A DNA stretch of 47,938 bases, taken from positions 1 through 47,938 of the forward strand of contig CANRAQ010000002.1 of the NCBI GenBank assembly GCA_947628725.1, given 5' to 3'. The stretch's first letter is position 1. Each line of letters opens with the position of its first letter. Of this stretch, positions 1-41,086 are shown piece by piece. Source of the DNA: an uncultured Bacilli bacterium. Lineage in GTDB: Bacteria > Bacillota_I > Bacilli_A > RF39 > UBA660. Below the pieces are notes generated by a model that saw only the letters and a list, made by a program, of their open reading frames with translations, did no database searches and was not told the DNA's origin. Position numbers and translations under genes: made by a program.

Positions 1-3000
1 AGTAAAGTTTACTGTTATTGTTGCTGATCCTGCTGCTACTCCTGTTACTGTTACTAAATTATTTGTATTTGCAGCTACTGCCGCTGATGAGGCTTGTGTT
101 ACTGTTGCTTTTGCTGTTGCGTTACTTGATACTGTAAACTTTCCTGCTACACTTGCTTTTTCATTAAATGTTAATGTTTTTCCTTTTACTACAGTTCCGC
201 TTGTTGCACTTAATGTTATTGTTGGTGTTGCTTTATTTACTGTTAATTTCCCATTTACTTTTGTTATATCATAATTTGCTGTTACATCTGTTGTTCCACT
301 TTTTATTACAACATTGCTTAATGTATTTGTAGCAGTTCCTGCTGCTGTTTGTGTTCCTACTATTGTACATGTTGCTGCATGTCCACTTACTAATTGACCA
401 CTTGTTAATGTACATGTGTTATTTGTTAGTGCACTTGCATCATATGTTTTACTTGATGTTCCTGCTGTATATGTCACTGGCCTTTTAGATATTGAACAGT
501 TAAATGTCTTTGTTCCTGTTGCGTTATCAGACCATCTATATCCTGTCACTAGTGTTGCTGTTATTGTATATGTTCCTGCATTTGTTTGATTATATCCACT
601 TAATGTATATCCTGTTCCACTTGTTGCTGTTGTGATTTGTTGTTGACTTCCTGTATATACTAGTCCTGTTTTACATAAAGAAGTCGTTGGAATCGCTGCC
701 GCACTTGCTATTGTAGCCGTATATGTCTTTGCTGCAGCATTATTATAATTTGCCGTATCTGTTGGAGTAAAGTTTACTGTTATTGTTGCTGATCCTGCTG
801 CTACTCCTGTTACTGTTACTAAATTATTTGTATTTGCAGCTACTGCAGCTGATGAGGCTTGTGTTACTGTTGCTTTTGCTGTTGCGTTACTTGCTACTGT
901 AAACTTTCCTGCTACACTTGCTTTTTCATTAAATGTTAATGCTTTCCCTGCCACTACTGTTCCACTTGTTGCGCTTAATGTTATTGTTGGTGTTGCCTTT
1001 GCTATTGAACAACTAAATGTCTTTGTTCCTGTTGTATTATCATTCCATCTATATCCTGCTGCTAATGTCGCTGTTACTGTATGTGCCCCTGCAGTCGTTT
1101 GATTATATCCTGTTAATGTATATCCTGTTCCACTTGTTACTGTTGTTATCTGTTGTTGGCCTCCTGTATATACAAGCCCTGTTTTACATAAAGAAGTCCC
1201 TGGTGGCGTTGCTGATTTTGTTACTGTTGCTGTATATGTCTTTGCTGCCGCACTATTAAAGTTTGCTGTATCTGTTGGAGTAAAGTTTACTGCTATCGCA
1301 CTACTTCCATCTTTTACTCCTGTTACTGTTATTGTTGTTGCTTTACCTGCTGCTGTTGCTGTTACTGTCGCACTTCCTGGACTTACTGTAGCTACTGCTG
1401 TTGTTCCACTTGTAATACTAAGTGTTCCTGCCGCATCTGGTGTTGATTTTACTGTTGCTGTAAATGTCATTGTTTTTCCTGCTACTACTGTTCCATTTGC
1501 TGAAAGTGTTATTGTTGGTGTTGCCTTTGCTATTGAACAACTAAATGTCTTTGTTCCTGTTGTATTATCATTCCATCTATATCCTGCTGCTAATGTCGCT
1601 GTTACTGTATGTGCCCCTGCAGTCGTTTGATTATATCCTGTTAATGTATATCCTGTTCCACTTGTCGCTGTTGTTATCTGTTGCTCGCTTCCTGTATATA
1701 CTAGTCCTGTTTTACATAAACTTGTTGTTGGTGGTGTTGCTGATTTTGTTACTGTTGCTGTATATGTCTTTGCTGCCGCTTTGTTAAAGTTTGTTGTATC
1801 TGTTGGAGTGAAGTTTACTGCTATAGCACTACTTCCATCTTTTACTCCTGTTACTGTTATTGTTGTTGCTTTACCTGCTGCTGTTGCTGTTACTGTCGCA
1901 CTTCCTGGACTTACTGTAGCTACTGCTGTTGTTCCACTTGTAATACTAAGTGTTCCTGCCGCATCTGGTGTTGATTTTACTGTTGCTGTAAATGTCATTG
2001 TTTTTCCTGCTACTACTGTTCCATTTGCTGAAAGTGTTATTGTTGGTGTTGCCTTTGCTATTGAACAACTAAATGTCTTTGTTCCTGTTGTATTATCATT
2101 CCATCTATATCCTGCTGCTAATGTCGCTGTTACTGTATGTGCCCCTGCAGTCGTTTGATTATATCCTGTTAATGTATATCCTGTTCCACTTGTCGCTGTT
2201 GTTATCTGTTGCTCGCTTCCTGTATATACTAGTCCTGTTTTACATAAACTTGTTGTTGGTGGTGTTGCTGATTTTGTTACTGTTGCTGTATATGTCTTTG
2301 CTGCTGCATTATTAAAGTTTACTGTATCTGTTGGAGTGAAGTTTACTGCTATCGCACTACTTCCATCTTTTACTCCTGTTACTGTTATTGTTGTAGCTTT
2401 ACCTGCTGCTGTTGCTGTTACTGATGCACTTCCTGGACTTACTGTAGCTACTGCTGTTGTTCCACTTGTAATACTAAGTGTTCCAGCTGCATCTGGTGTT
2501 GATTTTACTGTTGCTGTAAATGTCATTGTTTTTCCTGCTACCACTGTTCCATTTGCTGAAAGTGTTATTGTTGGTGTTGCCTTTGCTATTGAACATTTAA
2601 ATGTCTTTGTTCCTGTTGCGTTATCATTCCATCTATGTCCATCTGCTAATGTTGCCGTTACTGTATATGTTCCTGCATTTGTTTGATTATATCCACTTAA
2701 TGTATATCCTGTTCCACTTGTTGCTGTTGTGATTTGTTGTTCGCTTCCCGTATATACTAGTCCTGTTTTACATAAAGAAGTTGTTGGAATTGTTGCTGAT
2801 TTTGTTATCGTTGCTGTATATGTCTTTGCTGTTGCATTATTAAAGTTTACTGTATCTGTTGGAGTGAAGTTTACTGCTATCGCACTACTTCCATCTTTTA
2901 CTCCTGTTACTGTTATTGTATTACTTGCTGCTCCTGCAGAAGTTGCTGTTAATGCTTGACTTGCTGGTGTTACTGTAGCTACTGCTGTTGTTCCACTTGT

Positions 3001-4400
3001 TGCACCTACTGTTCCTGCTGCTGATACAGTAGTTCCTGATTTCACTGTTGCTGTAAATGTTAATGTTTTTCCTGCTACTACTGTTCCACTCGCTGCACTT
3101 AATGTTATTGTTGGTGTTGCTTTATTTACTGTTAATTTCCCATTTACTTTTGTTATATCATAATTTGCTGTTACATCTGTTGTTCCGTTTTTTATTACAA
3201 CATTGCTCAATGTATTTGTAGCAGTTCCTGCTGTTGTTTGTGTTCCTGCTATTGTACATGTTGCTGCATGTCCACTTACTAATTGACCACTTGTTAATGT
3301 ACATGTGTTATTTGTTAATGCACTTGCATCATATGTTTTACTTGATGTTCCTGCTGTATATGTTACTGGCCTTTTAGCTATTGAACAGTTAAATGTCTTT
3401 GTTCCTGTTGCGTTATCAGACCATCTATATCCTGTCGCTAATGTTGCTGTTACTGTATATGAACCTGCATTTGTTTGCGTATTGCCACTAAATGTATAGC
3501 CTTCTCCTGCTGCATTTGTTATTGTTTGTGCTGCCCCATTATATGTTGGTGTTGAACAATATGATGTTGTTGGAATCGCTGCTGATTTTGTTATCGTTGC
3601 TGTATACGTCTTTGCTGCAGCATTATTAAAGTTTGTTGTATCTGTTGGAGTAAAGTTCACTGTTATTGTGCTTGATCCATCTTTTACTCCTGTTACTGTT
3701 ATTGTTGTCTGTGCTCCTGCACTTGTTCCTGTCGTTTGAGTGCTTGTTGGTGATACTGTTGCTGTTGCTGGTGTACTACTATCCAAAGATAATGTTCCTA
3801 CAGCATTTGGAGTTGATTTTACTGTTGCTGTAAATGTTAATGTTTTTCCTTTTACTACTGTTCCACCTGTTGCTGATATTTCTATTGTTGGAGTTATTTT
3901 TGTTATTTTTAATGTTCCATCTACATATTTTATATTTACTGTATAGTTTGATGCCTCTGCAGTAAGACCACTTAATTTTATTGAATATGTTCCTGCATTT
4001 GTTGGAGCAATTGTGTTTTCATTATAATTTGATGATGAATATTTATATGTAGGTGTTCCTCCTATTGTTACTACTGTTTCTTTGTCGTTTCCTTTTAATC
4101 CTTCTACACTAGTAGTGTATGAATTAGATAGATTAGCTGGGCTTGCTGTATATGCTACTGTCTGATTTTTTGGTGTTGCTGTTAATGTCAAAGGTGCCTT
4201 TTTTATAGAACAAGTAAATGTTTTATTTGTTCCTGTGAAGTCTTCCCATACATATCCTTCTTTTAATGTTGCTGTTACCGTATAATCTCTTGCATTTAAC
4301 TGTGTATTATTACTAAATGTATAGCCCTCTCCTGCCGCTTTTGTTATTATTTGGTTTGCGCCATTATACGTTGGATTTGAGCAATATGTTAGATCTGCTG
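1..4400 (-). repeat. Intragenic tandem repeat array: near-identical 528-bp (176-aa) units plus longer ~765-790-bp mosaic units
   Basis: The antisense ORFs at 1017, 1545 and 2073 have identical N-termini, giving a 528-bp period. The motif 'atgtctttgttcctgtt' recurs at ~504, 1017, 1545, 2073, 2601 and 3393. Positions 1-~300 repeat at 766-~1010, and 241-520 repeat at 3121-3400. Confidence 0.9.
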
Positions 4401-6561
4401 GTATTACTATTTTTCTTTTTGAAGTCTCTACTTTATTATTTTCTACATCAGTAGTGTCGCTTACTTCTTTATCTTGATAATTTGCTTTTTTTAATGTTAC
4501 TGTTACTCCGACATGTTTTCCTACTAAATCATCTGTAACTTTTAAATCTTTGCCTGTTTGACCTTCTATTACTACTTTTTTCCCAGTTGAGTCCTCATAC
4601 CACCATTCATATTCATAACTATCTGGTTTTTCTTGTGGATCTGTCACTGTTGCTGTTAATGTACTTCCTACTACATTGTCTCCTTCTACTGTTACGCTTC
4701 CACCTGTAAATGGTCTTTTTGTTACTGTTAATTTTCCCTTTGCATTAGTTATCTTGTAATTTTTTGTTACATCTACATTACTTGCATTTTTTATTGTTAC
4801 TGTTTCTATAACATTGTCTTTTGTGCCTACATTTGTTATAGCTGATTCTTTTGTCATTTTACAAGTTACATTATGTCCATTTATTAGGCTTGCTGTACAT
4901 CCACTATTAGTTAAAGGAGTTCCATCGTAAACTTTTTGATCACTTGCAGCTGTTACTGTTACTGGTCTTTTATTTATTGTAAATGTTTTACTTACTGTTC
5001 CTTTATAATTTCCTTTTCCTGTTACTGTTACAGTTGCTGTTCCTGCATCTACATTATCTTCATATGTTACTGTATAATCTGTATCAAATGTTAATGTTTT
5101 TGATCCATCTTTTAAAGTTACTGTTGGTGTCTTTGCAGTTGAATCGTATTCGTATTCGTTTTCACTTAATGTTACTGTAAAATCATCTATTGGTTTTGGT
5201 GTTACTACTCCATGTGCTTGAGTTTGTTCATTTACATTTCCTACTCTATCTGATACTGAACCTGTTTTTAATACTAAATCATATTCTCCTGCATTTACGC
5301 TATTTAATGTTAATGTTATTTTATATCCATTTGTTACTTTTACTGCTTCACTTATTGCTTTTATTGTTGATATATTACTATTTAAAGTAAAATTATCATT
5401 ATTAAGTTTAAATAGGTCTAATCCACTTTCTTCATCTGTGCATATTACTGTAGCTGTTATTTCTTCTCCATAAATTACACTATTTATGTTTGGTATTGTA
5501 CATATTGGTTTTATACTATCTATTGTATCTATATCTTTTACTACATTCTTATAATTTAGTCCATCACTCGTTGTTGCTTTTACTGTTTTATTATCCCTAT
5601 ATGTGACTTGTTCTTTAATTTTCACACTTGGTTGTGATACCTTATACCATGTGTTTGGTTTTATCTGTGTTGTATCTTCACCACTACATTTTGTTGGTAA
5701 TATTGTTGCGTTATTACAACTATTTACCTTAACATTACTTGTTCCTGCTACTTCTGAATAAAAATAATGTTCTGGTGTTATAATGTTTGTATCATCATAT
5801 AATATTGTTACTTCTTTTTGTAACCAGTTATCTGTCTTTGTTATAGTTATGCTTGGCGCTACTATTTCTTTAGTTTTTACTGATCCTGTTAGTGTTGCTT
5901 CTTTTCCAACTACATTTGTTACTACTATTTTATAATAATAGGTATTATTAGATATTAAGTTATCAAATGAGCATGTTTTTTCGTTTGTTTTTCCTGTTCC
6001 ACCATATGTTGTATCTTTTCCGAATTCACATCTATAACTTTTTATTACTGATTCACTATTAACATCAAAATTTATTATTGATGAGTTTGTACTGATATCT
6101 GATGATATAAAAGTTAATATTGGAGCATCTAATGATACTTCTCCCTTTGTTATTCCTGATTCTTTTCCCCAGTTTACTATTTCATCATTTATTTCTAAGT
6201 TATATAATCCTACTACTTTATCATCTTCTACAATTACTGTGCCATCTTTTGGTTTACCACTTTTTAATTCAAGGTCTAATGTGTCCCCATTACATTTTTT
6301 ATTTGAATAGCTACCTAAACATAGGTTACCATCTTCCATTACTGCATATGAGCCATCTTTAACATTGAACTTTTCTATTTTTTTACTTACAATATTATCC
6401 TGTATAGCTCCTATATAATTGTCTACACTTATTTGAATATTTCTGTCTTTAGAACTTTCTATTATTCCATATACAAAATAGACTAATATAAGTCCTATAA
6501 TTGTTAATACCGCTATTACTGCAAGTAGTTCTACTAATGTAAATCCTCTTCTTTTACTCAT
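1..6561 (-). CDS. Giant (>2186 aa; 3' end beyond window) surface protein with a type IV prepilin-like N-terminus followed by many Ig-like/MBG-like repeat modules
   Basis: Absent from the ORF track because no stop lies in the window. Hand translation of the reverse strand from the ATG at 6561 (GAGG ~8 nt upstream) gives MSKRRGFTLVELLAVIAVLTIIGLILVYFVYGIIESSKDRN..., i.e. a G|FTLVE prepilin cleavage/methylation motif plus a hydrophobic helix. Frames spot-checked at 1-60, 3961-4020, 5401-5460 and 6361-6561 are open. 6561 is divisible by 3, so the frame runs off position 1. Repeated ...YNGAAQTITNAAGEGYTFSGNTQTNAGSYTVTATLATGYRWSDNATGTKTFNCSIAK... and KVYDGTPLT-type modules. Confidence 0.85.
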   Translation of the reverse strand, partial: MSKRRGFTLVELLAVIAVLTIIGLILVYFVYGIIESSKDRNIQISVDNYIGAIQDNIVSKKIEKFNVKDGSYAVMEDGNLCLGSYSNKKCNGDTLDLELKSGKPKDGTVIVEDDKVVGLYNLEINDEIVNWGKESGITKGEVSLDAPILTFISSDISTNSSIINFDVNSESVIKSYRCEFGKDTTYGGTGKTNEKTCSFDNLISNNTYYYKIVVTNVVGKEATLTGSVKTKEIVAPSITITKTDNWLQKEVTILYDDTNIITPEHYFYSEVAGTSNVKVNSCNNATILPTKCSGEDTTQIKPNTWYKVSQPSVKIKEQVTYRDNKTVKATTSDGLNYKNVVKDIDTIDSIKPICTIPNINSVIYGEEITATVICTDEESGLDLFKLNNDNFTLNSNISTIKAISEAVKVTNGYKITLTLNSVNAGEYDLVLKTGSVSDRVGNVNEQTQAHGVVTPKPIDDFTVTLSENEYEYDSTAKTPTVTLKDGSKTLTFDTDYTVTYEDNVDAGTATVTVTGKGNYKGTVSKTFTINKRPVTVTAASDQKVYDGTPLTNSGCTASLINGHNVTCKMTKESAITNVGTKDNVIETVTIKNASNVDVTKNYKITNAKGKLTVTKRPFTGGSVTVEGDNVVGSTLTATVTDPQEKPDSYEYEWWYEDSTGKKVVIEGQTGKDLKVTDDLVGKHVGVTVTLKKANYQDKEVSDTTDVENNKVETSKRKIVIPADLTYCSNPTYNGANQIITKAAGEGYTFSNNTQLNARDYTVTATLKEGYVWEDFTGTNKTFTCSIKKAPLTLTATPKNQTVAYTASPANLSNSYTTSVEGLKGNDKETVVTIGGTPTYKYSSSNYNENTIAPTNAGTYSIKLSGLTAEASNYTVNIKYVDGTLKITKITPTIEISATGGTVVKGKTLTFTATVKSTPNAVGTLSLDSSTPATATVSPTSTQTTGTSAGAQTTITVTGVKDGSSTITVNFTPTDTTNFNNAAAKTYTATITKSAAIPTTSYCSTPTYNGAAQTITNAAGEGYTFSGNTQTNAGSYTVTATLATGYRWSDNATGTKTFNCSIAKRPVTYTAGTSSKTYDASALTNNTCTLTSGQLVSGHAATCTIAGTQTTAGTATNTLSNVVIKNGTTDVTANYDITKVNGKLTVNKATPTITLSAASGTVVAGKTLTFTATVKSGTTVSAAGTVGATSGTTAVATVTPASQALTATSAGAASNTITVTGVKDGSSAIAVNFTPTDTVNFNNATAKTYTATITKSATIPTTSLCKTGLVYTGSEQQITTATSGTGYTLSGYNQTNAGTYTVTATLADGHRWNDNATGTKTFKCSIAKATPTITLSANGTVVAGKTMTFTATVKSTPDAAGTLSITSGTTAVATVSPGSASVTATAAGKATTITVTGVKDGSSAIAVNFTPTDTVNFNNAAAKTYTATVTKSATPPTTSLCKTGLVYTGSEQQITTATSGTGYTLTGYNQTTAGAHTVTATLAAGYRWNDNTTGTKTFSCSIAKATPTITLSANGTVVAGKTMTFTATVKSTPDAAGTLSITSGTTAVATVSPGSATVTATAAGKATTITVTGVKDGSSAIAVNFTPTDTTNFNKAAAKTYTATVTKSATPPTTSLCKTGLVYTGSEQQITTATSGTGYTLTGYNQTTAGAHTVTATLAAGYRWNDNTTGTKTFSCSIAKATPTITLSANGTVVAGKTMTFTATVKSTPDAAGTLSITSGTTAVATVSPGSATVTATAAGKATTITVTGVKDGSSAIAVNFTPTDTANFNSAAAKTYTATVTKSATPPGTSLCKTGLVYTGGQQQITTVTSGTGYTLTGYNQTTAGAHTVTATLAAGYRWNDNTTGTKTFSCSIAKATPTITLSATSGTVVAGKALTFNEKASVAGKFTVASNATAKATVTQASSAAVAANTNNLVTVTGVAAGSATITVNFTPTDTANYNNAAAKTYTATIASAAAIPTTSLCKTGLVYTGSQQQITTATSGTGYTLSGYNQTNAGTYTITATLVTGYRWSDNATGTKTFNCSISKRPVTYTAGTSSKTYDASALTNNTCTLTSGQLVSGHAATCTIVGTQTAAGTATNTLSNVVIKSGTTDVTANYDITKVNGKLTVNKATPTITLSATSGTVVKGKTLTFNEKASVAGKFTVSSNATAKATVTQASSAAVAANTNNLVTVTGVAAGSATITVNFT

Positions 6562-6715
6562 AACATGCACCTCTCATAACTATTTTCACTAATATCATTA
6601 TACTATTTTTGCCTTTAAAAGTAAATAAAAAATGGCAAGTTATGTCATTTTTTAGGGGTTGATAAATATCTATATAGATTAAACATATTTTTCATATAAT
6701 ATAGTGGTGGTATTA

Positions 6716-7412: not shown

Positions 7413-7580
7413 CTATTGCATGTTATTAAACATATTTCCTGAGCATCCACCACAATCATTATTTATAACTACATTTTCTTCATCACAAGTATATTGTGGA
7501 GTATATGTATGTGTATAAATATGTTTATTTATTACATGAGTATGTATTGGGCAACAATGTGCCTGCCCATTTTTGATAGA
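7413..7580 (-). pseudogene. C-terminal segment of a split CotD-family spore coat gene (no start codon)
   Basis: Open frame SIKNGQAHCCPIHTHVINKHIYTHTYTPQYTCDEENVVINNDCGGCSGNMFNNMQ*, beginning directly after and in frame with the mazF stop. No ATG/GTG/TTG start. The His/Thr/Pro/Cys-rich composition resembles CotD. Confidence 0.6.
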
Positions 7581-7922
7581 CTATTCTTCAATGCAAGCAT
7601 TTAACAAAGTAATTATGCTTATTAAATCATTGTCACTTAATTTTTCAACAAATTTTAAATTTCTAATTTCATAATCTATACTTCTAATATGTTCACACAA
7701 AACGGATCCATGTACATCTTTGGTATCCTCCAATTTATAATGTGTTGGAAATTCTTTATCATTAGAAGTAATTGGACACACAATAACCATTTTTGTATTT
7801 TGATTAAAGATGTTATTGCTAATTACAACTGCAGGTCTAAAGCCTGATTGTTCATGACCTTTTATTGGATTAAAATTTAGAAAAACTAAATCTCCTTGCT
7901 TTGGTATATATTTTTTTACCAT
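7581..7922 (-). CDS. mazF: Type II toxin, PemK/MazF family endoribonuclease
   Basis: 113 aa. The IPKQGDLVFLNFNP..GHEQSGFRPAVVIS pattern is typical of MazF/PemK. Overlaps the upstream antitoxin gene. Confidence 0.85.
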   Translation of the reverse strand: MVKKYIPKQGDLVFLNFNPIKGHEQSGFRPAVVISNNIFNQNTKMVIVCPITSNDKEFPTHYKLEDTKDVHGSVLCEHIRSIDYEIRNLKFVEKLSDNDLISIITLLNACIEE

Positions 7923-8158
7923 ATTTCTTTTCCTACACTTTCATCCCAAGAAAAATCCTTTGCTAAATTTTCACCATTATATTCTTTAAATCTTTTTTCT
8001 AATGATATTTTCTTTTTTTGAGGCACACTAATAACTATTTTGTTATCATCTAGTTCTATATTTAATATATCATTAGTTTTTATATTTAAAGATTTTAAAA
8101 TATTACTAGGAATTCTAATACCTAAAGAATTTCCCCACTTTTGAAGCCTAGCTTCCAT
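7916..8158 (-). CDS. mazE: Type II antitoxin, MazE/AbrB/SpoVT family
   Basis: The N-terminus MEARLQKWGNSLGIRIP is a classic MazE/AbrB swapped-hairpin motif. The start at 8158 follows GGGGATGA. The stop overlaps mazF by 7 nt. Confidence 0.8.
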   Translation of the reverse strand: MEARLQKWGNSLGIRIPSNILKSLNIKTNDILNIELDDNKIVISVPQKKKISLEKRFKEYNGENLAKDFSWDESVGKEIW

Positions 8159-8233
8159 GTTATCATCCCCATTCACTTATAGTATATACAATGTTTATAC
8201 ATTTGTCAACCATTTATTACAATTTATAATAAG

Positions 8234-9802
8234 TTATTTAGGCATACTAAAAGTAACTTTAATATTTATAGTTTTATCTTCAAATATCTCTATTTTATCG
8301 ATTAAATTAACTATTAGTTCTCTACTAGGGTTTTTAAAATATATAAATTTATTAATATATTCTCTTATAAGTTTATTTTTTAACTCTTCATTTATTGTTT
8401 CATTAATATCATCATTTAATTTATTATATTCTTTTTGTTTTATTGAAAGTTCATGTTCTAATTTTGATTTTACTCTTTCAAATTGTTCATCAGTAATTTT
8501 TTTATTTAACTTATCAATATAAATATAATCTAAATTATCATTAATTTGTTTAATATCATTATTTAGTATTTCTAGTCCTTTTTTGTTATTAACTTTATTA
8601 TTTTTATTTAAATTAGATAAAACATTATTTCTAATTTTATCTTGACTAATATAATTTAAACACATTTTAGTAAGTGAATTAATAATTATTTTTTCCAACT
8701 TATCATAATTATTTGAATGAGTTGTACAAAGTCTTTTCTTCATATAAGTTCTATAGTAATTGCAAATAGTGTAACATCTATCATCCTTTTTTCTTCTAGA
8801 TGTAATTGATATTCTATGTCCACATTCACCACAATATAAAAGTCCATCTAATAAATGATTTTCTTTTTTTTCATTTCTACCTACATTTTTAGGTATTCGT
8901 TTTTGAGTTTCATAAAATAATTCTTTGTCAATTATAGCTTCATGAGTATTTTCTACAACAATATAATCATTAGTATTATTTTTAACAATCTTTTTAACTT
9001 TATAATTGACTTTATTTCTTTTATTTTGCACTAGATCACCTATATATATTCTGTTAGTTAAAATATCTCTAATTGTTTTAGGATGCCACTTCCCATATTT
9101 TAAATTATAATGACTTTTCCATTCAAAACTATAATACTCGGCAGGAGTTTTTACTTTTTCATTCGTTAACTGTTTTGCTATTTTATAAAATGACAAACCA
9201 CTCATACACATATTAAATATTCTCTTAACAACACTTGCCTGTTCTTGATTTATTACTAAGTGATTTTTGTCATTTTTATCTTGATCATATCCAAATGGTG
9301 TTCTTCCACCTACCCATTTACCTTCTTTCATTTTTGCTTTTAAACTAGACTTTATTTTCTTAGAAATGTCTTTAGCATACATATCGTTCATTATAGCTTT
9401 AAATGGTGCAATATCATTATTAGAACTATCTAAAAATGTATCTATATTATCCGTTACCGCAATATATCTAACATTATGTTCTGGAAAATATTTTTCTATT
9501 AAATTGCCTGTACCAATATAATCCCTACCAAGTCTTGACATATCTTTAGTAATAACCATATTTATTTTTCCAAGTTCAATATCTTTAAGTAGTCTATTAA
9601 AATTTGGTCTATCAAAATTAGTTCCTGAATACCCGTCATCAATATAAATATCACATATATTTAAATTATTCTCTTTGGCATATTGAAGTAATAAACTTTT
9701 TTGATTTGTAATGCTCTCACTTATCAATACCTTATCGTCGTCTTCACGAGATAGTCTTATATAAAGACCAACATTATATATATTATTTAAACTACTAATC
9801 AA
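8234..9802 (-). CDS. Large serine recombinase (resolvase/invertase N-domain + recombinase domain + zinc ribbon + coiled coil)
   Basis: VGLYIRLSREDD catalytic Ser motif, MSRLGRD, a CGECGH...C..C zinc ribbon and a Lys/Asn-rich coiled-coil C-terminus. Architecture as in SpoIVCA/SprA/TndX. Confidence 0.9.
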   Translation of the reverse strand: MISSLNNIYNVGLYIRLSREDDDKVLISESITNQKSLLLQYAKENNLNICDIYIDDGYSGTNFDRPNFNRLLKDIELGKINMVITKDMSRLGRDYIGTGNLIEKYFPEHNVRYIAVTDNIDTFLDSSNNDIAPFKAIMNDMYAKDISKKIKSSLKAKMKEGKWVGGRTPFGYDQDKNDKNHLVINQEQASVVKRIFNMCMSGLSFYKIAKQLTNEKVKTPAEYYSFEWKSHYNLKYGKWHPKTIRDILTNRIYIGDLVQNKRNKVNYKVKKIVKNNTNDYIVVENTHEAIIDKELFYETQKRIPKNVGRNEKKENHLLDGLLYCGECGHRISITSRRKKDDRCYTICNYYRTYMKKRLCTTHSNNYDKLEKIIINSLTKMCLNYISQDKIRNNVLSNLNKNNKVNNKKGLEILNNDIKQINDNLDYIYIDKLNKKITDEQFERVKSKLEHELSIKQKEYNKLNDDINETINEELKNKLIREYINKFIYFKNPSRELIVNLIDKIEIFEDKTINIKVTFSMPK

Positions 9803-9969
9803 TGTTTACCTCCCTCTAAATATAAATATGTAGATGATGGTATCCCATATTTTTTATTTTTACAAATCATTAAAATATAGTTTTTTAATTCTTTATTTAA
9901 AACTTTTATAAAAATATCATTAATATCTTTTTCTTCACTGAAAATATAATTAATTTTATACTTATCCAT
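9799..9969 (-). CDS. Small hypothetical protein translationally coupled to the recombinase (candidate accessory/directionality factor)
   Basis: The stop overlaps the recombinase start (ATGA-type overlap). The ATG at 9969 is preceded by GAGGGG. No recognisable domain. Confidence 0.4.
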   Translation of the reverse strand: MDKYKINYIFSEEKDINDIFIKVLNKELKNYILMICKNKKYGIPSSTYLYLEGGKH

Positions 9970-10057
9970 AAATTTTAAACCCCTCACTTAAATTTATGGA
10001 AAAAGTATTATTTTTTTACATATTAAATTAATATATTCTATTATAATAATTTAAGCA

Positions 10058-10090
10058 AATAAAAACATCCTATAAAATTTATTAGGATGT
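10058..10090 (-). terminator. Intrinsic terminator immediately after the Fic gene
   Basis: 8-bp stem acatccta/taggatgt followed on the minus strand by a T-run. It separates Fic from the recombinase unit. Confidence 0.6.
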
Positions 10091-10843
10091 TTAGTTATCT
10101 TCATTTATTTCAAAATTTAATAATTCACGACAAGTTTTTTCATATAAATCTTGTTCATATTTTATAGTATCAATTAAAAACATTTTATCTTTTTCATATT
10201 CTTTTAAACCTCTCATATAATAAGGTTTATCAGTATCTAATACAATAAATGGCATAATGTTATTTTTTAAACATTCTTTAAACATTATTATTCTACCTAC
10301 ACGCCCATTTCCATCTCCAAAAGGATGAATTCTTTCAAATCTAAAATGAAAATCAACTATATCTTCTAGAGTAATACTACTTTTAGAATTATATTCTTTT
10401 AATAATTTTTCTATTTCTTTTTCAACATCATTTGGTGCTGTTGTATTAACAGCATTAACAACACCTATAATATTAGGAACAACTTTAAATCCACCAACAT
10501 TATATCTAGGATTTTCTTCATCACTAGTATTTCTTTTTAATATCTTATTCATTTCAATTATCATATCTTTAGTTAAGAGTTCATCTACATTATCTAGCAT
10601 ATAATCAAATAGTTTAAAATGATTTTTAGACTCAATTAAATCATCTAATTTAATTAAATCATCACTTTTTGTGACAAAAGAAGATGTATCAAATATTGCC
10701 TCAGTCTGTTCACTAGTTAATCTACTACCTTCGATTTTATTTGAATTATACGAAAAATTAACTTGTGAATAATGATATATATTACCTTTAAATTTAGATT
10801 GTTTTTGCTTAATTAATTCATTTTTTATTTTATTTATATTCAT
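10091..10843 (-). CDS. Fic/DOC family protein (AMPylase-type)
   Basis: HPFGDGNGRVGR Fic motif. The N-terminal SNKIEG matches the [ST]xxxE[GN] auto-inhibitory motif. Confidence 0.85.
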   Translation of the reverse strand: MNINKIKNELIKQKQSKFKGNIYHYSQVNFSYNSNKIEGSRLTSEQTEAIFDTSSFVTKSDDLIKLDDLIESKNHFKLFDYMLDNVDELLTKDMIIEMNKILKRNTSDEENPRYNVGGFKVVPNIIGVVNAVNTTAPNDVEKEIEKLLKEYNSKSSITLEDIVDFHFRFERIHPFGDGNGRVGRIIMFKECLKNNIMPFIVLDTDKPYYMRGLKEYEKDKMFLIDTIKYEQDLYEKTCRELLNFEINEDN

Positions 10844-10872
10844 AAATTCACCCTCTTCTAAGTCTTATTGTT

Positions 10873-11310
10873 CTATTTATTATATTCTTTTAAAAATTCT
10901 TCTAATTCTTTTTCATTTGAAAATATTTCTTCAAAAATATTATATAGTGTATCTGTTGCTTCATACTCTCCTATTGCATAACATTTTTTACCTAACCCAT
11001 ATGCAATTCCTGATTCAATATGTGCTGCCTTACCTGCAGGTAAAACAAGTAGTAAATTTTTTGAATTTTTTTCTCCTTCTAAATCATTATTAAATAATTT
11101 TAAAACAATATTATTTTTTAATCCTAGTGATTCAAACTCTTTTTGTTTTTCTTCGGGAGTTTGATTTTTGTTTCCATATCCCCAATCATCTTCATTTTTT
11201 AAAAAACAATAATAAGATATTTTGTATTTATCAAATAAATTACATATATTTAAAATATTTTCTTTATTCCTAGCTCTACCGGCTATAAAAAATTCATATT
11301 TATTATTCAT
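10873..11310 (-). CDS. Nucleoside 2-deoxyribosyltransferase-like fold protein
   Basis: 145 aa. FIAGRARNKE near the N-terminus and a HIESGIAYGLGKK Glu-containing motif resemble the NDT/TIR-like Rossmann family. Remote, by eye. Confidence 0.45.
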   Translation of the reverse strand: MNNKYEFFIAGRARNKENILNICNLFDKYKISYYCFLKNEDDWGYGNKNQTPEEKQKEFESLGLKNNIVLKLFNNDLEGEKNSKNLLLVLPAGKAAHIESGIAYGLGKKCYAIGEYEATDTLYNIFEEIFSNEKELEEFLKEYNK

Positions 11311-11370
11311 ATAGATTACCTTTCAAATTAACATTTATTAATTGTTCTTTTTCTATTATATCATAAATTA

Positions 11371-11502
11371 TCACACATGTGGTACTTCATGATAGAATTC
11401 TTTTTCTACACATTTTGTTATTACTGGTTCCATTATTGGTTGTTCCATTTGAGGTGCTTGTTGTCTATTGCATCCTCCACAACAATTTCTATTACAAAAC
11501 AT
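11371..11502 (-). pseudogene. N-terminal segment of the split CotD-family spore coat gene
   Basis: AGGAGG RBS, then MFCNRNCCGGCNRQQAPQMEQPIMEPVITKCVEKEFYHEVPHV*. The stop falls 2 codons after the shared CACAT core. Below the track size cutoff. Confidence 0.6.
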
Positions 11503-11615
11503 AAATACCTCCTATCTAATTTATAATATGAATAATAAATTAAATTGTATGGTTTTATGCACAAAAAAATTATGGTTTTATAATCATAATTTTTCTAATA
11601 TATAAATTGCCTATA

Positions 11616-12241: not shown

Positions 12242-12400
12242 TTCCGAGTTTAGAAAATTGCATAATTGATTTCTCAACGACTAAATATTATCAGTACTTA
12301 GTGCAATATTCCTACCTAGAAGTTTCTCTCTTCTTACAATTGCAATGTCTAGAGTCGGTAGAAATTACGTAACCGCATTTCCATATCAATATTAAGCAAG
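12211..12400 (-). ncRNA. Candidate structured small RNA or cis-regulatory leader (family not identified)
   Basis: ~360 nt of non-coding sequence bounded by terminators at ~12575-12595 and 12211-12241. G+C is locally higher than the flanks and some complementary segments exist (ctacc...ggtag). No known riboswitch or T-box core recognised. Confidence 0.25.
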
Positions 12401-24646: not shown

Positions 24647-24794
24647 TTTCATATGTTCTCATTTTCATCATTTTACTACTCACAAGAACCATACTATTTA
24701 TGTGTTTATTTAGCCTAATCGCTAAATAGGAATTAAACTTCTACTATAAACCGTACTGAATATAATCCTTAAACTATATTAACTGACAGAAGTT

Positions 24795-26375
24795 TTACTT
24801 ACTTATTGTAGTTGGAACAAGAACGACACGGAACGAATCGCGGTCGACACTAACACCACTGTAGTAGAAGGAGCAGAACACGCCCGCACGGGTGCCATCG
24901 GCATAGTACCCACCACGACTGAACCAAGGGCTACCAGAATAAACAAAGTTAGCGTTATCTCCATACCATTCTGCTGTCTCACCTAATGCATGTCCTTTGC
25001 ATTCTTTATCTTTATCTGTATTTGTATTTGTACATTTAGAGTAAGAATCTACCATATATTTATCATAATATTTTGCATTATCAGGAAGAGTAAACCATGT
25101 TGCATCAACCCCTGAACTTGATACTGTATTATTGTAGTTACCCATTACTCTTTCAGCTGCTCCTCCACTTATATCATATATTCCATATATTGTCCCTGTT
25201 GTACTTGCTTTTTGCCCTTTTTCTGTTTCATATGTATTTGTTGTACATGTTGTTTCAGATGAACCTGCATTTGCTGTATCTCCTGCTATTCCTGTAATAT
25301 AGTTACTACAATTATTTATATAAACTTCTTCTTGGTCTTTTCCATATTTTCCATATTTTGATTGAGATAAGTACGCTACTGCTCCCCATTCTCTATTTTT
25401 CATCAGATGACTATCTACACCTTTTATATAATTATCAAATTTTTTTGCCGTAGCAAATTGATTAACAATTTGTTGATATCTTAATGATATTACATTTGGT
25501 AGTATATATGGGTCTTGATTAGCATTATTACAATTAGTTTCACTTGCTGATGTATAACATGTACTAGTTTTATCTGCACTTGTTTCAAATTTTGCTACCC
25601 ATATTCCATCAAGTTCATCATCCCCAAATGTAAATGCGGGATGTATTGTATAACCTTCTGTTGCATTTGTTCCTGTTCCACTTATAAAGTTTACTGATAT
25701 TTCTTGTTCTTTTGTTCCCATTTTATATTCATATCTTGGTATCCATACAAACATTGCTCTTACATCTGTATCTAGGTTTAATGCTTGACCTTCTGACTTT
25801 GCCTTTCCTGCATCTGTTAATATTACTGCATTTGCCCAATTATATTGTGAATAGTCATACCATTCTTTAGATGTATCTGCTATAACCCATGCATTATCTT
25901 TATATAGTACTGGTGTCATTCCTGATAATTCTGGAGTATTTGCTCCACTATTATCTTTATATACTTCTTCTGTTTTTGTTCCATCTTTTATTTTTAGGTT
26001 GCCTTTTTCATCTGTTTCTAATACTACATCTTTATATGTTAAGTCTTCTACTTTCTTTACTATTCCCCTATCAAATGTTATAGTTCCATCTGTTGGTTTT
26101 TCCCCATCTACTTCTACTACTAATTCTTCTCCATCACAAAGTAGATTTCCATTACTTTGTACTTCACATGTTGTTGGATTAAAATCTTCACTTATATTTT
26201 TTCTTGCTATTGCTTGTTCTACTGCATCTAAATATAGTTCACCTTTTCTTAAACTACTTGATTCTTTTGCATTATTTATTATGTTTAATATTATTGGTAC
26301 TGCTATTAGGGCTATTATTGCAAGTATTACTATTACTGCTAATAACTCTATTAATGTAAAACCTCTATTTTTCAT
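24795..26375 (-). CDS. Type IV prepilin-like N-terminus fused to an FGE-sulfatase/C-type-lectin-fold domain
   Basis: MKNRGFTLIELLAVIVILAIIALIAVP (G|FTLIE methylation motif). The C-terminal half has GIYDISGGAAERV and RGG...FRVVLV, like FGE-sulfatase family 'DMSGNVWEW' and 'RGGSW...GFR'. Confidence 0.8.
   Translation of the reverse strand: MKNRGFTLIELLAVIVILAIIALIAVPIILNIINNAKESSSLRKGELYLDAVEQAIARKNISEDFNPTTCEVQSNGNLLCDGEELVVEVDGEKPTDGTITFDRGIVKKVEDLTYKDVVLETDEKGNLKIKDGTKTEEVYKDNSGANTPELSGMTPVLYKDNAWVIADTSKEWYDYSQYNWANAVILTDAGKAKSEGQALNLDTDVRAMFVWIPRYEYKMGTKEQEISVNFISGTGTNATEGYTIHPAFTFGDDELDGIWVAKFETSADKTSTCYTSASETNCNNANQDPYILPNVISLRYQQIVNQFATAKKFDNYIKGVDSHLMKNREWGAVAYLSQSKYGKYGKDQEEVYINNCSNYITGIAGDTANAGSSETTCTTNTYETEKGQKASTTGTIYGIYDISGGAAERVMGNYNNTVSSSGVDATWFTLPDNAKYYDKYMVDSYSKCTNTNTDKDKECKGHALGETAEWYGDNANFVYSGSPWFSRGGYYADGTRAGVFCSFYYSGVSVDRDSFRVVLVPTTISK
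24814..24935 (-). other. Putative DGR variable region (VR) at the 3' end of the pilin-like/lectin gene
   Basis: On the coding strand I count only about a dozen A in ~120 nt, and well over half is G+C, within an AT-rich gene. There is a run of NNC codons (tac gcc ggc acc ttc tgc tcc tac gac). It encodes GGYYADGTRAGVFCSFYYSGVSVDRDSFRVV. Confidence 0.55.
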
Positions 26376-37032: not shown

Positions 37033-38007
37033 TTAGTTTTGCATTAATATTTGTTGACCTTTTATTAAATCATAACTAATTAATTTATCCCCTTCTAAAT
37101 TTTCTTTATACAGATCTACACCAGTAATTTGACTATTTTCATATGTCGTGTAATAGTATATACCTTTATCCATATTACAACAAGAACTATAAATAGTTAT
37201 TTCATATTTATCTTCTCCCATATGAACACAACCTCTTTGTTGTTCTACAGAACCTAAAATATGAAAAAACTGACTAATGCTTTCTGATTCTGAATCACCA
37301 GATAAGGAATTCATTTTTGTAAATGTTGCTTTAACAAATCTTGAAGCAGATGATAAATCTCCTGGTAGACCTAAAGCACCCATGCCACGACTATAAGTAT
37401 CAAAATTTAATTTTTTAGAAAAATTGTTTACTGGTGGTTCAATAGATAAATTCATATAATTATTTAAATTAAACATATGCATATCAAAAGTTGGATTATT
37501 TGTTAAAACTCCTACAGGATTATCATATATTTTTAAACCATCTTTAACACATTCAACTGTAATAGAACTTTCTTTATCAGAAATTATCCAATGTAATGGT
37601 GAAGCAGATAATTGTTCACTAAAATTAATTTTAACTATATTTATTTTACTTAATAATTCTTTTACTTCACAAATATTTGTACATTGTGATAAAACCCAAG
37701 GAATAAATTCAAATGGAGCAATATTGTCTTTATTGGCTTTCTCCTCTTTATATTCAGCATTACCAGGAAAATTTAACCCAGCCATACCTAATCCTTTTTC
37801 GTTAATTGCATCATAATATAGTGGATAATCGTTGGCAACATAAGCCATACCAATTATGGCATAATGACTATCTATATTATTAACTTTTCTAAACTTAAAT
37901 TTATAATTTCTAGGTGTTATTGTAACTGTTTCTTTATAAGAATATTCTAAGTCAAGATTTCTTCCAAAATAATGATTTTTTGTATTATAAGTTATTGCTG
38001 TACACAT
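37033..38007 (-). CDS. Choloylglycine hydrolase family (bile salt hydrolase/linear amide C-N hydrolase)
   Basis: MCTAIT N-terminal nucleophile Cys2, and FGRNLDLEYS as in Clostridium CBAH. Confidence 0.85.
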   Translation of the reverse strand: MCTAITYNTKNHYFGRNLDLEYSYKETVTITPRNYKFKFRKVNNIDSHYAIIGMAYVANDYPLYYDAINEKGLGMAGLNFPGNAEYKEEKANKDNIAPFEFIPWVLSQCTNICEVKELLSKINIVKINFSEQLSASPLHWIISDKESSITVECVKDGLKIYDNPVGVLTNNPTFDMHMFNLNNYMNLSIEPPVNNFSKKLNFDTYSRGMGALGLPGDLSSASRFVKATFTKMNSLSGDSESESISQFFHILGSVEQQRGCVHMGEDKYEITIYSSCCNMDKGIYYYTTYENSQITGVDLYKENLEGDKLISYDLIKGQQILMQN

Positions 38008-38334
38008 AATTATTAACTTCCTTCCATATATTATTTCATTAAATATTATAGCATGAATAAAGATAAAATTAAAATATGTTTTTTAGGGAACATAGATTTT
38101 TTTATTGTATAATATTTATAACTTATTTAAGTTCTATTTTCATCACCTATTATTATACATAAAAAGTTATCCCTATGAGAGATAACCATTTTAATATAGA
38201 ATTTTTTCTTTACAAAATAAATTTGGTTCCCTAGAATCTACACAATTGTTATTTACTTTTTTGTATTACTTTTACACCTTTAGGATTAATTTCAATTCCT
38301 TTAAACTGTAATTTTACTATTGTATTGTTTATAT

Positions 38335-39390
38335 TTAAAATTTACTTAATAAATTAATTAATCTTGTATTTTTATAAATACTTTCTCTTCCTACTTTTTC
38401 AAATTCAAGCAATCCAGCATCTACTAAACTATTTAAATATGTAGTAGCTGTTTGTCTTGTTACATCACATCTATTTTCAATATAATTAATTCTAGTATAG
38501 ACTTCAAAGAATAAAGAATCCAATAATTCATCAGAATATATTTTAGGTAATTTTGTCATAAACTCTTCTTTATAAGATTCCATTTCATTTTGAATTCGTT
38601 TAATTAATTCAATTGTATTTCTAGATGTTTCTTCGATTCCCTTTAATATATATATAATCCAATCTTCATAGTTATTATTTTCTCTAAATTCGGTAAATAA
38701 TTTATAGTATTGATCTTTATTTTTATTAATATAATTACTTAAATAAAGAATTGGACTATCTAAAAGATTATTTAATACTAAATATAAAACATTTAATATT
38801 CTACCAGTTCTACCATTTCCATCGTAAAATGGATGAATAGATTCAAACTGATAATGAATTAAAGCCATTTTAATAAGTGGATCTATCTCATCATCATTTT
38901 CATTAATATAATCTTCAAGATTTTTAAGTAAATCTCTAATTTCTTTTTCATCTTGTGGTGGAGTATAAATTACTTCTCCAGTTTTACTATTAACTAATTT
39001 AGTACCAGGATTTTTTCTTATACCAGCTTTATTGTGTTCAATCATTCCTTGAAGTTCTACTAAAACATTAGTTGAAATAAATTCTTTTTCTTTTATAATT
39101 TCATATCCACGCCAAATAGCACTTCTATAATCAACAACTTCTTTAGCAGATTCATCTTTAAATTCACTTTCCGTTAATACTTTATAAATACTATCATGTG
39201 TAGTAACAATATTTTCTATCGCACTACTATCCTTTGCTTCATTAATAGTAATAGCATTAATTAAAATATGTTGATTTGGAATTGAATTAGCAAAACCTTT
39301 TAATTCAGCAAGTGATCTTGAAGCTTCATTTAATGCTTCAAGTATTCTTGGTGTTTTTAAATCGCAATCATTAAATGGTAATAACTTCAT
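38335..39390 (-). CDS. Fic family protein with Fic_N and C-terminal winged-helix domains
   Basis: HPFYDGNGRTGR. SSAIEN matches [ST]xxxE[GN]. The C-terminal TRQTATTYLNSLVDAGLL is HTH-like. Confidence 0.85.
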   Translation of the reverse strand: MKLLPFNDCDLKTPRILEALNEASRSLAELKGFANSIPNQHILINAITINEAKDSSAIENIVTTHDSIYKVLTESEFKDESAKEVVDYRSAIWRGYEIIKEKEFISTNVLVELQGMIEHNKAGIRKNPGTKLVNSKTGEVIYTPPQDEKEIRDLLKNLEDYINENDDEIDPLIKMALIHYQFESIHPFYDGNGRTGRILNVLYLVLNNLLDSPILYLSNYINKNKDQYYKLFTEFRENNNYEDWIIYILKGIEETSRNTIELIKRIQNEMESYKEEFMTKLPKIYSDELLDSLFFEVYTRINYIENRCDVTRQTATTYLNSLVDAGLLEFEKVGRESIYKNTRLINLLSKF

Positions 39391-39429
39391 AGTTATTCAT
39401 CTCCTTACATATAATATTACACTATTTTT

Positions 39430-39494
39430 TTAACATATACAAGAAATATGTTAAAATTTTTGCATTTTTTTAACATATTTTATAATTATGTTAA
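39430..39494. promoter_or_regulatory. Two palindromic operator-like sites (half-site TTAACATA) upstream of the Fic gene
   Basis: ttaacatat-N7-atatgttaa at 39430-39454 and ttaacata-N9-tatgttaa at 39470-39494, 40-100 nt upstream of the Fic start. Confidence 0.45.
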
Positions 39495-39614
39495 AAATTA
39501 CTTATAGAATCATTCACAAAATTACTACTAAAAAAGCTAATACAAAAGCTTAAGAAATAAGCCTATACTAGCATACCATTTTTATTAAATTATATCTAAA
39601 AAATATTATTTATT

Positions 39615-39801
39615 ATTAAACTCCTACTGGCTCAAATTGTTCAATCATTATTTCTAAACAATTCATTACTTCATCAAACTCTATCCCTTCTGCATAAGCA
39701 AAGTTATTTTGAAATAACATAGCCATTATTCATTTTCATAATAGATTCAATAATTTCTATATTACTTTCTTCTTTAAATTCTTTTATTGTCATTCTTTCC
39801 A
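39615..39801 (-). pseudogene. Small frameshifted ORF, possibly the N-terminal remnant of an AbiEi-like antitoxin
   Basis: GGAGG RBS, then MERMTIKEFKEESNIEIIESIMKMNNGYVISK*. The next frame continues NNFAYAEGIEFDEVMNCLEIMIEQFEPVGV*. The family assignment is weak. Confidence 0.25.
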
Positions 39802-39924
39802 TAATTTTTCCTCCTTGACAAATCTACTGATATTTTGACGTTTATCAGTAATTTTGTCAATAATATTATAAAAAGTTGTAGAAATATTTTCCCAGATCTT
39901 AGTAATTATACTTACTTTTGGAAA

Positions 39925-40033
39925 TTTATTTAAATACTTTTACCCTTATTTTAAATCTTTTAAAATTAATTATTTACTTTAATAACTAAATAAAAGTTTA
40001 AAATTTTGGTAGTTTAAAAGGTAGTTTAGATTT
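39925..40033 (+). repeat. Copy A of a ~110-bp direct repeat (3' end of the 84-aa ORF plus downstream sequence)
   Basis: ~85-90% identical by eye to 45444-45551 (tttatttaaatacttttacc...aaaattttggtagtt.aaaaggtagtt.agattt). Confidence 0.8.
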
Positions 40034-40252: not shown

Positions 40253-40287
40253 CTTGCTTAATTCTTACTTAATTTTTGCTTAAATTA

Positions 40288-40791: not shown

Positions 40792-41086
40792 TATTCTTTA
40801 CCTCCATTTATATTTTTAATAATGAGTGCAGATATCTACGTGTGCATACCCATTTTTTCTTGTCACTCCTGTCAATTATTAATCAACAATATCACTGACC
40901 TTAATATTATACCAAATAAAGCTCATTTTTTATTAATATATCATTAATAAAAATATAATATCTTTTGGTTTTAAAATACCATAGTTAAAATGTCCTTCGC
41001 CTATTTAGTTGCTCTAATTTCTATTCTCTTTGTCTTATTTTTTATTGCATTAAAAGCTCTATTATCAATATCAAAAATATACTTCA

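Follow-up and report, generated by a model that had tools for sequence, protein, structure and literature searches.

A 3.8-kb serine-recombinase element splits a CotD-family gene in an uncultured Bacilli bacterium and is a candidate for excision during sporulation

We analyzed a 47,938-nucleotide (nt) stretch of DNA from an uncultured Bacilli bacterium (GenBank assembly GCA_947628725.1, contig CANRAQ010000002.1, forward strand; here called the window), in which a gene of the CotD family of spore coat proteins is split. The interrupting element measures 3,820 bp and codes for a large serine recombinase (LSR). Both pieces of cotD lie on the minus strand. The first is an open reading frame (ORF) of 43 amino acids (aa) at 11371-11502, with an ATG start and an AGGAGG ribosome binding site (RBS; 11513-11508); its translation is MFCNRNCCGGCNRQQAPQMEQPIMEPVITKCVEKEFYHEVPHV, followed by a stop codon at 11371-11373, two codons beyond the junction (CACAT). 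The second, a frame at 7413-7580 reading ...SIKNGQAHCCPIHTHV...MFNNMQ before its stop, is open from the stop codon of the adjacent mazF gene onward, and no in-frame ATG, GTG, or TTG was found between that stop codon and His42 (...AHCCPIHTHV...). On the plus strand, ATGTG occurs at 7557-7561 and again at 11377-11381; a join at these two sites produces a stop-free frame of 270 nt and 89 aa. The ORF pieces, RBS, missing start, core positions, and 89-aa join had all been described in an initial annotation of this DNA and were verified here.

All genes of the element are on the cotD strand. Along the direction of cotD transcription, they follow the order 145-aa protein, Fic protein, terminator-like hairpin, 56-aa ORF, LSR, and MazE/MazF pair (Table 1). 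The three LSR domains matched Pfam PF00239 (E = 8e-24; residues 13-163), PF07508 (E = 3e-25; 187-305), and PF13408 (E = 4e-9; 317-377), and Pfam likewise upheld the earlier domain assignments for Fic, MazE/MazF, and the neighboring CotF protein. The mazEF genes have their own sigma-70-like promoter (8209-8181; 11/12 matches). The 56-aa ORF overlaps the LSR start, as first claimed. No phage, replication, or transfer genes were found in the window's element, and neither the 56-aa nor the 145-aa protein matched a family in Pfam or NCBIfam. The 56-aa protein has 209 homolog clusters, every one unnamed, and was modeled as a single long helix (predicted local distance difference test score, 67).

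Table 1. Features of the split cotD locus, with positions in the window
Feature	Positions	Strand	Details
Putative sigma-K-type cotD promoter	11522..11548	-	AC 11548-11547, 16-nt spacer, CATATTATA 11530-11522
cotD 5' segment, codons 1-41	11380..11502	-	N-terminal halves ending ..HEVP recovered in 50 loci
attL	11357..11400	-	Host B arm 11400-11380, CA 11379-11378, element P' arm GTGTGATAATTTATGATATA 11377-11357
Cargo gene, 145 aa, no family	10873..11310	-	Also in 4 other fetched loci, 93-97% identity
Fic/DOC-domain protein, 250 aa	10091..10843	-	Pfam PF02661, E = 1.4e-14
Terminator-like hairpin and U-run, gap between Fic and 56-aa ORF	10058..10092	-	-10.1 kcal/mol, z = -4.5, then UUUUU
Conserved box CATAAATTTAAGTGAGGG	9981..9998	-	Candidate mother-cell-type -10 (CATAnAnT), then RBS of the 56-aa ORF-LSR operon
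56-aa ORF (MDKYKINYIF...), candidate recombination directionality factor	9799..9969	-	Stop overlaps LSR start (TTGA)
LSR, 522 aa	8234..9802	-	Resolvase, Recombinase, and Zn_ribbon_recom domains
MazE/MazF pair	7581..8209	-	MazE 7916-8176; MazF 7581-7922
attR	7537..7580	-	Element P arm TCTATCAAAAATGGGCAGGCA 7580-7560, CA 7559-7558, host B' arm 7557-7537
cotD 3' segment, His42 (restored by predicted crossover) to stop, without own start	7413..7559	-	Frame reading
cotD intrinsic terminator, downstream of 3' segment	7346..7379	-	-28.8 kcal/mol, z = -6.7

Compared with 5.8 billion protein clusters, the joined protein returned 245 cluster matches, many of them uninterrupted proteins of 77 to 100 aa with up to 88% identity over 99% of the joined sequence. 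Some homologs are named "CotD family spore coat protein" by NCBI, and several close ones carry a precomputed match to Pfam PF11122 (Spore-coat_CotD). The joined protein itself scored 17.5 bits against PF11122, below the cutoff of 22 (E = 0.006; residues 22-85, spanning the junction), and had no NCBIfam match. In an alignment of 20 homologs, the junction FYHEVPH/CCPIHTHV fell within the most conserved block, and His42 was invariant. Continuous CotD relatives spanning the junction, which the initial annotation had anticipated, are thus present: intact homologs of ~80 to 100 aa read H-C-C-P, as do all of the closest ones (85 to 88% identity). No cluster member of the nearest intact homologs exceeded 88.5% identity. 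The two pieces match consecutive, not overlapping, regions of the CotD family. Moreover, intact orthologs in related organisms occupy the same ffh-cotD(-VanY) position and represent empty sites, and the right half of the window's predicted attB attachment site is identical over 35 nt to the intact ortholog in locus L094. The ATGTG/CACAT 5-mer occurs ~30 times per strand in the window; by itself it carries no weight, and it is the agreement of the joined product with its homologs that exceeds chance. Judged from these alignments, the two pieces are consecutive halves of one 89-aa CotD-family gene.

Aligning the junctions across relatives located the probable crossover. The initial annotation had proposed a 5-bp core and an HCCP product, both of which proved correct, and the core could be narrowed to the dinucleotide CA, invariant in 50 attL and 57 attR sites. 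On the coding strand, the attL consensus of these sites is catGAaGTaCCa-CA-(a/t)GtgTGATAATTTATGaTAgA and the attR consensus is TcTAtCAaAAAaGGgCAangA-CA-TgTntgnCCaat, the latter with an inner GGGCA/TGYCC symmetry. The base 3' of CA in attL is A in 33/50 loci, giving CAA (at times CAA TAG or CAA GAG), whereas attR sites invariably have T or C there and so encode His. Only an exchange at CA or 5' of this dinucleotide can therefore regenerate His42. The TCTATCA and TGATAGA of the deduced attP each lie exactly 21 nt from CA (TCTATCA-N14-CA-N14-TGATAGA), and since they are symmetric about CA, as expected for a serine-integrase attP, CA is taken as the central dinucleotide. The exchange is thus predicted to fall in the second CA of CACAT (TG on the plus strand at 7558-7559 and 11378-11379), a placement from which the element size of 3,820 bp follows. 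Of the symmetry arms first proposed, those around the attR core (GGGCA/TGCCC) are real and conserved, whereas the cacatgtg palindrome with its tatca/tgata arms at attL is largely incidental. As functional symmetry, the proposed arms give way to the TCTATCA...TGATAGA pair.

When recombination at CA was carried out in silico, it yielded an uninterrupted cotD like the intact orthologs (predicted attB junction, GAAGTACCACATTGTTGCCCAATAC / GAATTCTATCATGAAGTACCACATTGTTGCCCAATACATACTC) and a circle with attP (predicted junction, ATGGGCAGGCACATGTGTGATAATTT / AGTCTATCAAAAATGGGCAGGCACATGTGTGATAATTTATGATATAATAG). An attP-type site, TCTATCAAAAAGGAGCAAGGA-CA-AGTGTGATAATTTATGATAGA, lies in locus L047 (202-8382; junction 3385-3428), where two related elements stand in tandem within one cotD gene. 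This tandem confirms the deduced attP and shows recombination activity at a site where an element was already present. Taken together, we regard the split gene, the LSR element, the att sites, and the in silico reconstitution as close to certain.

A crossover at the downstream TG (yielding PHVCP) was considered, since three Logan contigs end directly after CACATGTGTG. It was rejected because 33/50 attL sites read CAA, which would place Gln or a stop at the invariant His, because this TG lies off the attP symmetry center, and because the closest intact relatives read HCCP. All three contigs (L008, L009, and L010) come from a single study and break off at ...CCACATGTGTG, 5 nt beyond the core (window 11372-11381). 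Their breaks imply a second sequence in the samples that shares the preceding 30 nt and differs from the predicted attB; it may be a PHVCP allele or an element variant. Separately, codon 41 of cotD (window 11380-11382) differs between the closest intact homologs (P0001, P0244, P0258, and P0269), which read HEV(K/E/Q)-H, and most split genes, which read HEVP/H. These variants, with the three bases beside the crossover changed, may be insertion-resistant attB alleles.

The arrangement was not peculiar to the window. LSR relatives, surveyed at one genome per GTDB species, were present in at least 522 genomes, and 80 loci were fetched, mostly from metagenome-assembled genomes of uncultured gut "Bacilli," "Tenericutes," or "Mollicutes," as well as Clostridium sp. 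CAG:914. The LSR itself belongs with more than 120 clusters at 78 to 98% identity. In 57 fetched loci (species-representative genomes), a related LSR sits at His42 of an ffh-linked cotD, with ffh directly upstream of the split gene in 45 loci. In nearly all fetched loci with at least 64% LSR identity, a tblastn search found a 3' half starting at His42, with the LSR lying 21 to ~2,300 nt upstream of it (21-35 nt in 12 loci), and a 5' half ending ..HEVP was upstream wherever detectable. The split arrangement therefore recurs, and in a large family rather than once, which the initial annotation could not have known. Elements with both ends (n = 44) span 2.8 to 11.3 kb (median, 4.6 kb). The LSR was present in 44/44, the 56-aa ORF in 40/44 (by BLAST clustering), Fic in 33/44, and MazEF in 9/44; NERD nuclease, ASCH, GNAT, and a 527-aa unknown protein were cargo that varied between elements. 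By hidden Markov model, the 56-aa ORF was found in every fetched locus with at least 64% LSR identity and enough upstream DNA, as well as in 15/16 loci with LSR identity below 66%, including most of a 53 to 58% clade. The retention of Fic in 33 of the complete elements suggests that it matters to the element. Across loci L011 to L077, the element's Fic (81 to 94% identical to the window's) and LSR (~80 to 87%) are more conserved between species than is Ffh (66 to 84%).

Pairwise LSR identity did not track host identity as measured by Ffh (Spearman -0.03; Mantel p = 0.57), whereas CotD did (rho = 0.60), and LSRs with 99.8% identity were seen in hosts with just 76% Ffh identity. Because LSR identity is uncorrelated with host Ffh identity, the element is judged to spread horizontally. 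Vertical inheritance as the cause of the wide distribution is ruled out by the same lack of correlation, although some pairs and the within-species data fit codivergence.

How, then, might the element act? We lean toward mother-cell, sporulation-timed excision. The LSR would have integrated the nonphage element into the His42 codon of the 89-aa cotD. During sporulation, a mother-cell sigma factor would transcribe the coupled 56-aa ORF-LSR operon, and the 56-aa protein, as directionality factor, would let the LSR recombine attL with attR. The element would then leave the mother-cell chromosome, cotD would be rebuilt behind its retained sigma-K-type promoter, and the forespore genome would keep the element. 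Mother-cell expression of cotD is assumed here from the cotD of Bacillus subtilis. The gene is listed as a SpoIIID target (PMC517825), and skin, SPbeta, gin, and yin each combine an LSR with a directionality factor of 42 to 72 aa expressed from sigma-E/K promoters (PMC5595907, PMC5025042, PMC4191935, PMC10747680). The foremost alternative, which we consider rather unlikely, is a selfish safe-harbor insertion, in which a dispensable cotD serves as the attachment site and is inactivated, with excision being sporadic or for transfer and not tied to the mother cell. Such an insertion would account for the horizontal spread without cophylogeny, for the addiction- or defense-type cargo (MazEF, Fic, NERD, and GNAT), and for the changed codon 41 (B arm) of close intact relatives, which looks like an escape from insertion.

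The state of the split halves speaks against inactivation of cotD. All 57 3' halves are open, running from His42 to a stop 39 to 52 codons on, as are all 50 recovered 5' halves, without a stop or frameshift in any. Over the first 33 codons of the start-less half, the ratio of nonsynonymous to synonymous substitution rates (dN/dS) was ~0.25, and nonsynonymous differences per site (pN) were below synonymous ones (pS) in 99% of 1,596 pairs. Two comparisons bear on the split state itself. In the one pair of loci consistent with codivergence (L043/L046), the dS of the LSR (0.85) matched that of Ffh (0.86), which fits coinheritance of element and host, and the 3' half had accumulated 1 nonsynonymous versus 8 synonymous changes. 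Between strains of the window's species, the host flank was 1.4% divergent and the element 0.9 to 1.1%, while the cotD pieces showed 0/272 nt changed. Searching the collection located the 43-aa piece in 25 blocks; all contigs read that extend beyond it run on into the element, 23 independent contigs of the species share the arrangement, and an exact match to the intact protein was absent among 15 billion sequences. That the element occurs in every sampled contig of the species, with a divergence approximating that of the host flank while the cotD pieces stay unchanged, also counts against a safe-harbor insertion.

The cotD promoter and terminator also appear to have been retained, which likewise argues against a dead gene. 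The terminator stem comprises 11 bp, contains GC pairs, and is followed by a U-run. By inspection, most of the 50 split cotD genes are preceded by a CATAnnnTA box with constant spacing to the RBS; the strict AC-N15-18-CATAnnnT pattern was met upstream of only 15/50. The consensus used, CATAnnnTA for the sigma-K -10 element, is that of B. subtilis sigma-K promoters.

Evidence on the timing of excision comes from the 56-aa ORF-LSR operon. No sigma-70 promoter was detected upstream of this operon in the window at the scan threshold, a point against a safe-harbor insertion. A box, CCATAA(G/A)TTTAAG, directly precedes the 56-aa ORF RBS in ~40 elements. In a sister clade with a different target gene, CCATAGAATTAATTGGAGG is found at the same distance from the start codon within intergenic DNA that is otherwise different, so that both clades share an CCATAnAnTTAA box with constant spacing to the start codon. 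These boxes read CATAnAnT with a kmATAww-like heptamer 13 to 14 nt upstream, the pattern of sigma-E promoters, and the -10 ends 21 nt from the ATG. The directionality factor of skin in Clostridioides difficile, CD1234, has a sigma-E promoter whose start site is 14 bp from the start codon (PMC5025042). The sigma-E-like score reached 13/14 for the sister-clade locus L085 (attained by 0.3% of shuffles), 12/14 for the window (7%), 12/14 for the sister-clade locus L078 (6%), and 11/14 for the cotD-clade consensus (40%). A sigma-E-like promoter upstream of the operon is therefore suggestive and weakly significant at best. Of the sigma-E or sigma-K elements that the initial annotation had looked to between 9970 and 10057, the CATAnAnT box was seen, but its sigma-E-like score in the window was weak. 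Most elements (e.g., L021 and L048) also carry a long inverted repeat, AGTAATACTAAAT...(inner GTGTAAT..ATTACAC)...ATTTAGTATTACT, just upstream of the CATAAGTTTAAG box. This repeat, which could be an operator or an RNA structure, is absent from window positions 9990-10057, having been lost by the window's element.

The 56-aa protein is a candidate directionality factor because of its small size, its strict association with the LSR in clades that differ in target, and its translational coupling to the LSR. SprB of SPbeta has ~58 aa. Established directionality factors include GirX with 42 aa (PMC5595907) and CD1234 with 72 aa (PMC5025042).

Several points weigh against mother-cell excision. The sigma-E-like score is nonsignificant for the cotD-clade consensus and weak for the window, and no attP-type junction came up in scans of JGI metagenome contigs (two IUPAC patterns) or IMG/VR contigs (one pattern); both the weak promoter evidence and the missing junctions would suit a safe-harbor insertion. 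The two possible reconstituted proteins were absent in an exact look-up among 15 billion sequences, i.e., no intact allele of the species was retrieved. A directionality factor coupled to its integrase is awkward for the integration step of horizontal spread, and, since the element is horizontally mobile, much of the constraint on cotD could predate the insertion. In B. subtilis, cotD is dispensable for spore formation, so an unrepaired insertion could be tolerable. Finally, the host is uncultured, and its presumed ability to sporulate is read from gene content only.

A further alternative is that excision is regulated by growth phase or stress in a subpopulation rather than being mother-cell specific, producing mixed populations with intact and split cotD. 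The yin element of Clostridium botulinum, which is excised at all time points, sets a precedent (PMC10747680), and the L047 tandem indicates recombination activity beyond a simple one-step integration. The three Logan contigs that break 5 nt past the core also imply sequence heterogeneity there; however, the break is off the predicted attB divergence point. In addition, germ-line excision would cost the species an element that has no genes for replication or transfer, but all contigs sampled from the species carry it. We consider this alternative improbable. Misassembly or a chance in-frame join of two unrelated small ORFs, to which pieces below ordinary gene-calling thresholds and a 5-mer common in the window might have pointed, is refuted by the 23 independent species contigs, the 57 fetched loci, and a join that reproduces the family consensus, and is practically without likelihood.

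Mother-cell excision gains from comparison with known systems. LSR-excised elements have been described in sporulation genes as skin (sigK), SPbeta (spsM), vfbin (spoVFB), vrin (spoVR), gin (gerE), and yin (yabG) (PMC4191935, PMC5595907, PMC10747680), and all characterized LSR elements within mother-cell genes excise at sporulation (PMC5595907, PMC4191935, PMC5025042), a regularity that a safe-harbor insertion would break. Full-text literature searches for an element interrupting cotD found none. Judged by its architecture, the cotD element would belong to the skin/SPbeta/gin class, and its excision in the mother cell is predicted accordingly by analogy: the cotD coding sequence is interrupted, and precise excision would restore the frame. 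Prophage-like content, a further mark of the class, is lacking, as the cargo comprises Fic, MazEF, and one unknown protein in the window and NERD, ASCH, or GNAT elsewhere. This mark had already been relaxed by gin, which is nonphage and 28.6 kb (PMC5595907). The LSR has the traits of a serine integrase, with the domain trio in one ~500-aa protein and att sites symmetric around CA, where cleavage is predicted.

Closest in kind is gin of Bacillus cereus ATCC10987 (GirC/GirX; PMC5595907), which, like the cotD element, is nonphage, splits a tiny mother-cell gene (225 versus 270 bp), encodes an LSR and a tiny motif-less directionality factor (GirX; the 56-aa candidate here), and crosses over in a short shared core flanked by imperfect inverted repeats. 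Different strains carry identical copies of gin, too, and this implies that it is transferred horizontally although it encodes no transfer functions itself, as here. In contrast to gin, the cotD element is only 3.8 kb (2.8 to 11.3 kb in the family), has one LSR with a partner ORF overlapping its start, and has been found in uncultured gut Bacilli, with at least 57 species-representative genomes carrying it. Both in vivo and in vitro, gin has been shown to excise, whereas excision of the cotD element is predicted.

In the skin elements of sigK (SpoIVCA in B. subtilis; CD1231/CD1234 in C. difficile; PMC5025042, bioRxiv 10.1101/2022.02.25.481979), the LSR adjoins the 3' segment in the same orientation, as it does here, and the elements have only the recombinase module in common. 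Their recombinase or directionality factor has sigma-E-type promoters with short leaders, to which the candidate box of the cotD element may be likened. However, skin elements are prophage-like and 14.6 to 48 kb, and they split a regulatory sigma factor, so that excision gates the program, whereas CotD is a structural coat protein. The initial annotation had also seen intervening DNA of the skin/SPbeta kind, which a complete LSR whose best solved-structure match is SprA of SPbeta bears out (PDB 9dxh and 9dxd; E = 1e-27; residues 6-487). SPbeta (SprA/SprB; PMC4191935, PMC5499854) is both mobile and developmentally excised, and its target, spsM, is a late sigma-K-dependent spore-surface gene; unlike the cotD element, SPbeta is a 134-kb active phage with separately regulated sprB. 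The sequence similarity is distant, and among phage records in the collection, none exceeded 35% identity to the LSR.

Outside sporulation, Tn4451/Tn4453 (TnpX) are small nonphage elements of ~6 kb moved by an LSR through a circular intermediate, and the TnpX catalytic domain (2mhc) is a strong match to the LSR (E = 2.4e-27 over 111 residues), a resemblance to a mobilizable transposon that would favor a safe-harbor insertion. Tn4451 has a Mob protein and oriT, GA ends, and relaxed target choice, with no need of a directionality factor and no gene rebuilt. A Tn4451-type transposon was rejected as the identity of the cotD element, given no Mob/relaxase domain in the scanned ORFs, a CA core, and a single target codon (57 loci). 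In the fdxN element of Anabaena (XisF), LSR excision in a terminally differentiated cell restores an interrupted gene; the XisF NCBIfam model matched the LSR weakly (E = 7e-30; 104 bits versus a cutoff of 375). Heterocyst elements differ in phylum and cell type, span 10 to 55 kb, and, for XisF, require XisH and XisI.

In the sister clade, the small ORF-LSR module (LSR 53 to 56% identical) is inserted in a LysM-repeat gene (loci L078, L080 to L082, L084, L086, L087, L089, and L090; e.g., L086 7796-8191 and 11563-12042). There, the reading frame continues beyond the LSR stop codon as K(I/N)VSGD(S/T)L(W/Y)SIA..., and in L086 the 5' part ends ..YTVKRGDT/FFMENN before a stop; the predicted join would restore a LysM repeat. 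The protein encoded next to the LysM gene has 450 aa, three PG_binding_1 stretches, and a weak match to SpoIID. One speculative reading, to which we give little credence, is that these modules are "mother-cell riders" specialized on genes used only in the mother cell (cotD and the LysM-repeat gene), for which excision would also be dispersal. If so, the circle would be freed at mother-cell lysis and taken up by neighbors while the spore keeps the integrated copy, accounting for transfer-less elements of 3 to 5 kb that are 99.8% identical in hosts with Ffh only 76% identical.

Other features of the window include an Rfam PGK RNA motif at 12281-12369 (minus strand; 67 bits, above the gathering score), directly upstream of the operon with a 75-aa protein and the CotF-domain protein that neighbors cotD. 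An Rfam RT-14 RNA (24651-24792, minus strand; 55.6 bits) lies directly downstream of a 526-aa ORF (24795-26375, minus strand) that carries a prepilin N-terminal methylation motif and is not a reverse transcriptase. An open frame of more than 2,191 aa (1-6573, minus strand) runs off the left end of the window; with its prepilin-type signal GFTLVELLAVIAVL and internal repeats of ~528 bp, it looks like a giant pilin-like surface protein. At 37033-47228 (minus strand) are genes for a bile-salt hydrolase (CBAH), a second SoFic-like Fic protein, AbiEii, and Abi_2, a content that looks like that of a gut-adapted organism with a small defense island.

The cotD element is distinguished by its size, its coupled partner-LSR operon, its frequent Fic cargo, its wide horizontal spread, and its uncultured gut lineage, and to our knowledge it is the smallest intervening element of a sporulation gene. 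If mother-cell excision is correct, cotD would add a structural coat gene to the list of genes rebuilt by rearrangement, namely, sigK, spsM, spoVFB, spoVR, gerE, and yabG. It would also mean that such rebuilding is widespread among uncultured gut Bacilli with small genomes, some of them labeled Tenericutes or Mollicutes, whose sporulation capacity is otherwise guessed. As a near-minimal element (attP, LSR, and 56-aa partner), it would offer a clean system for the study of directionality and cell-type timing, and the dozens of natural LSR variants with defined attP/attB sites of ~44 bp are candidates for serine-integrase genome-engineering toolkits. Strict site specificity combined with horizontal spread and no visible means of transfer raises the question of how such elements move.

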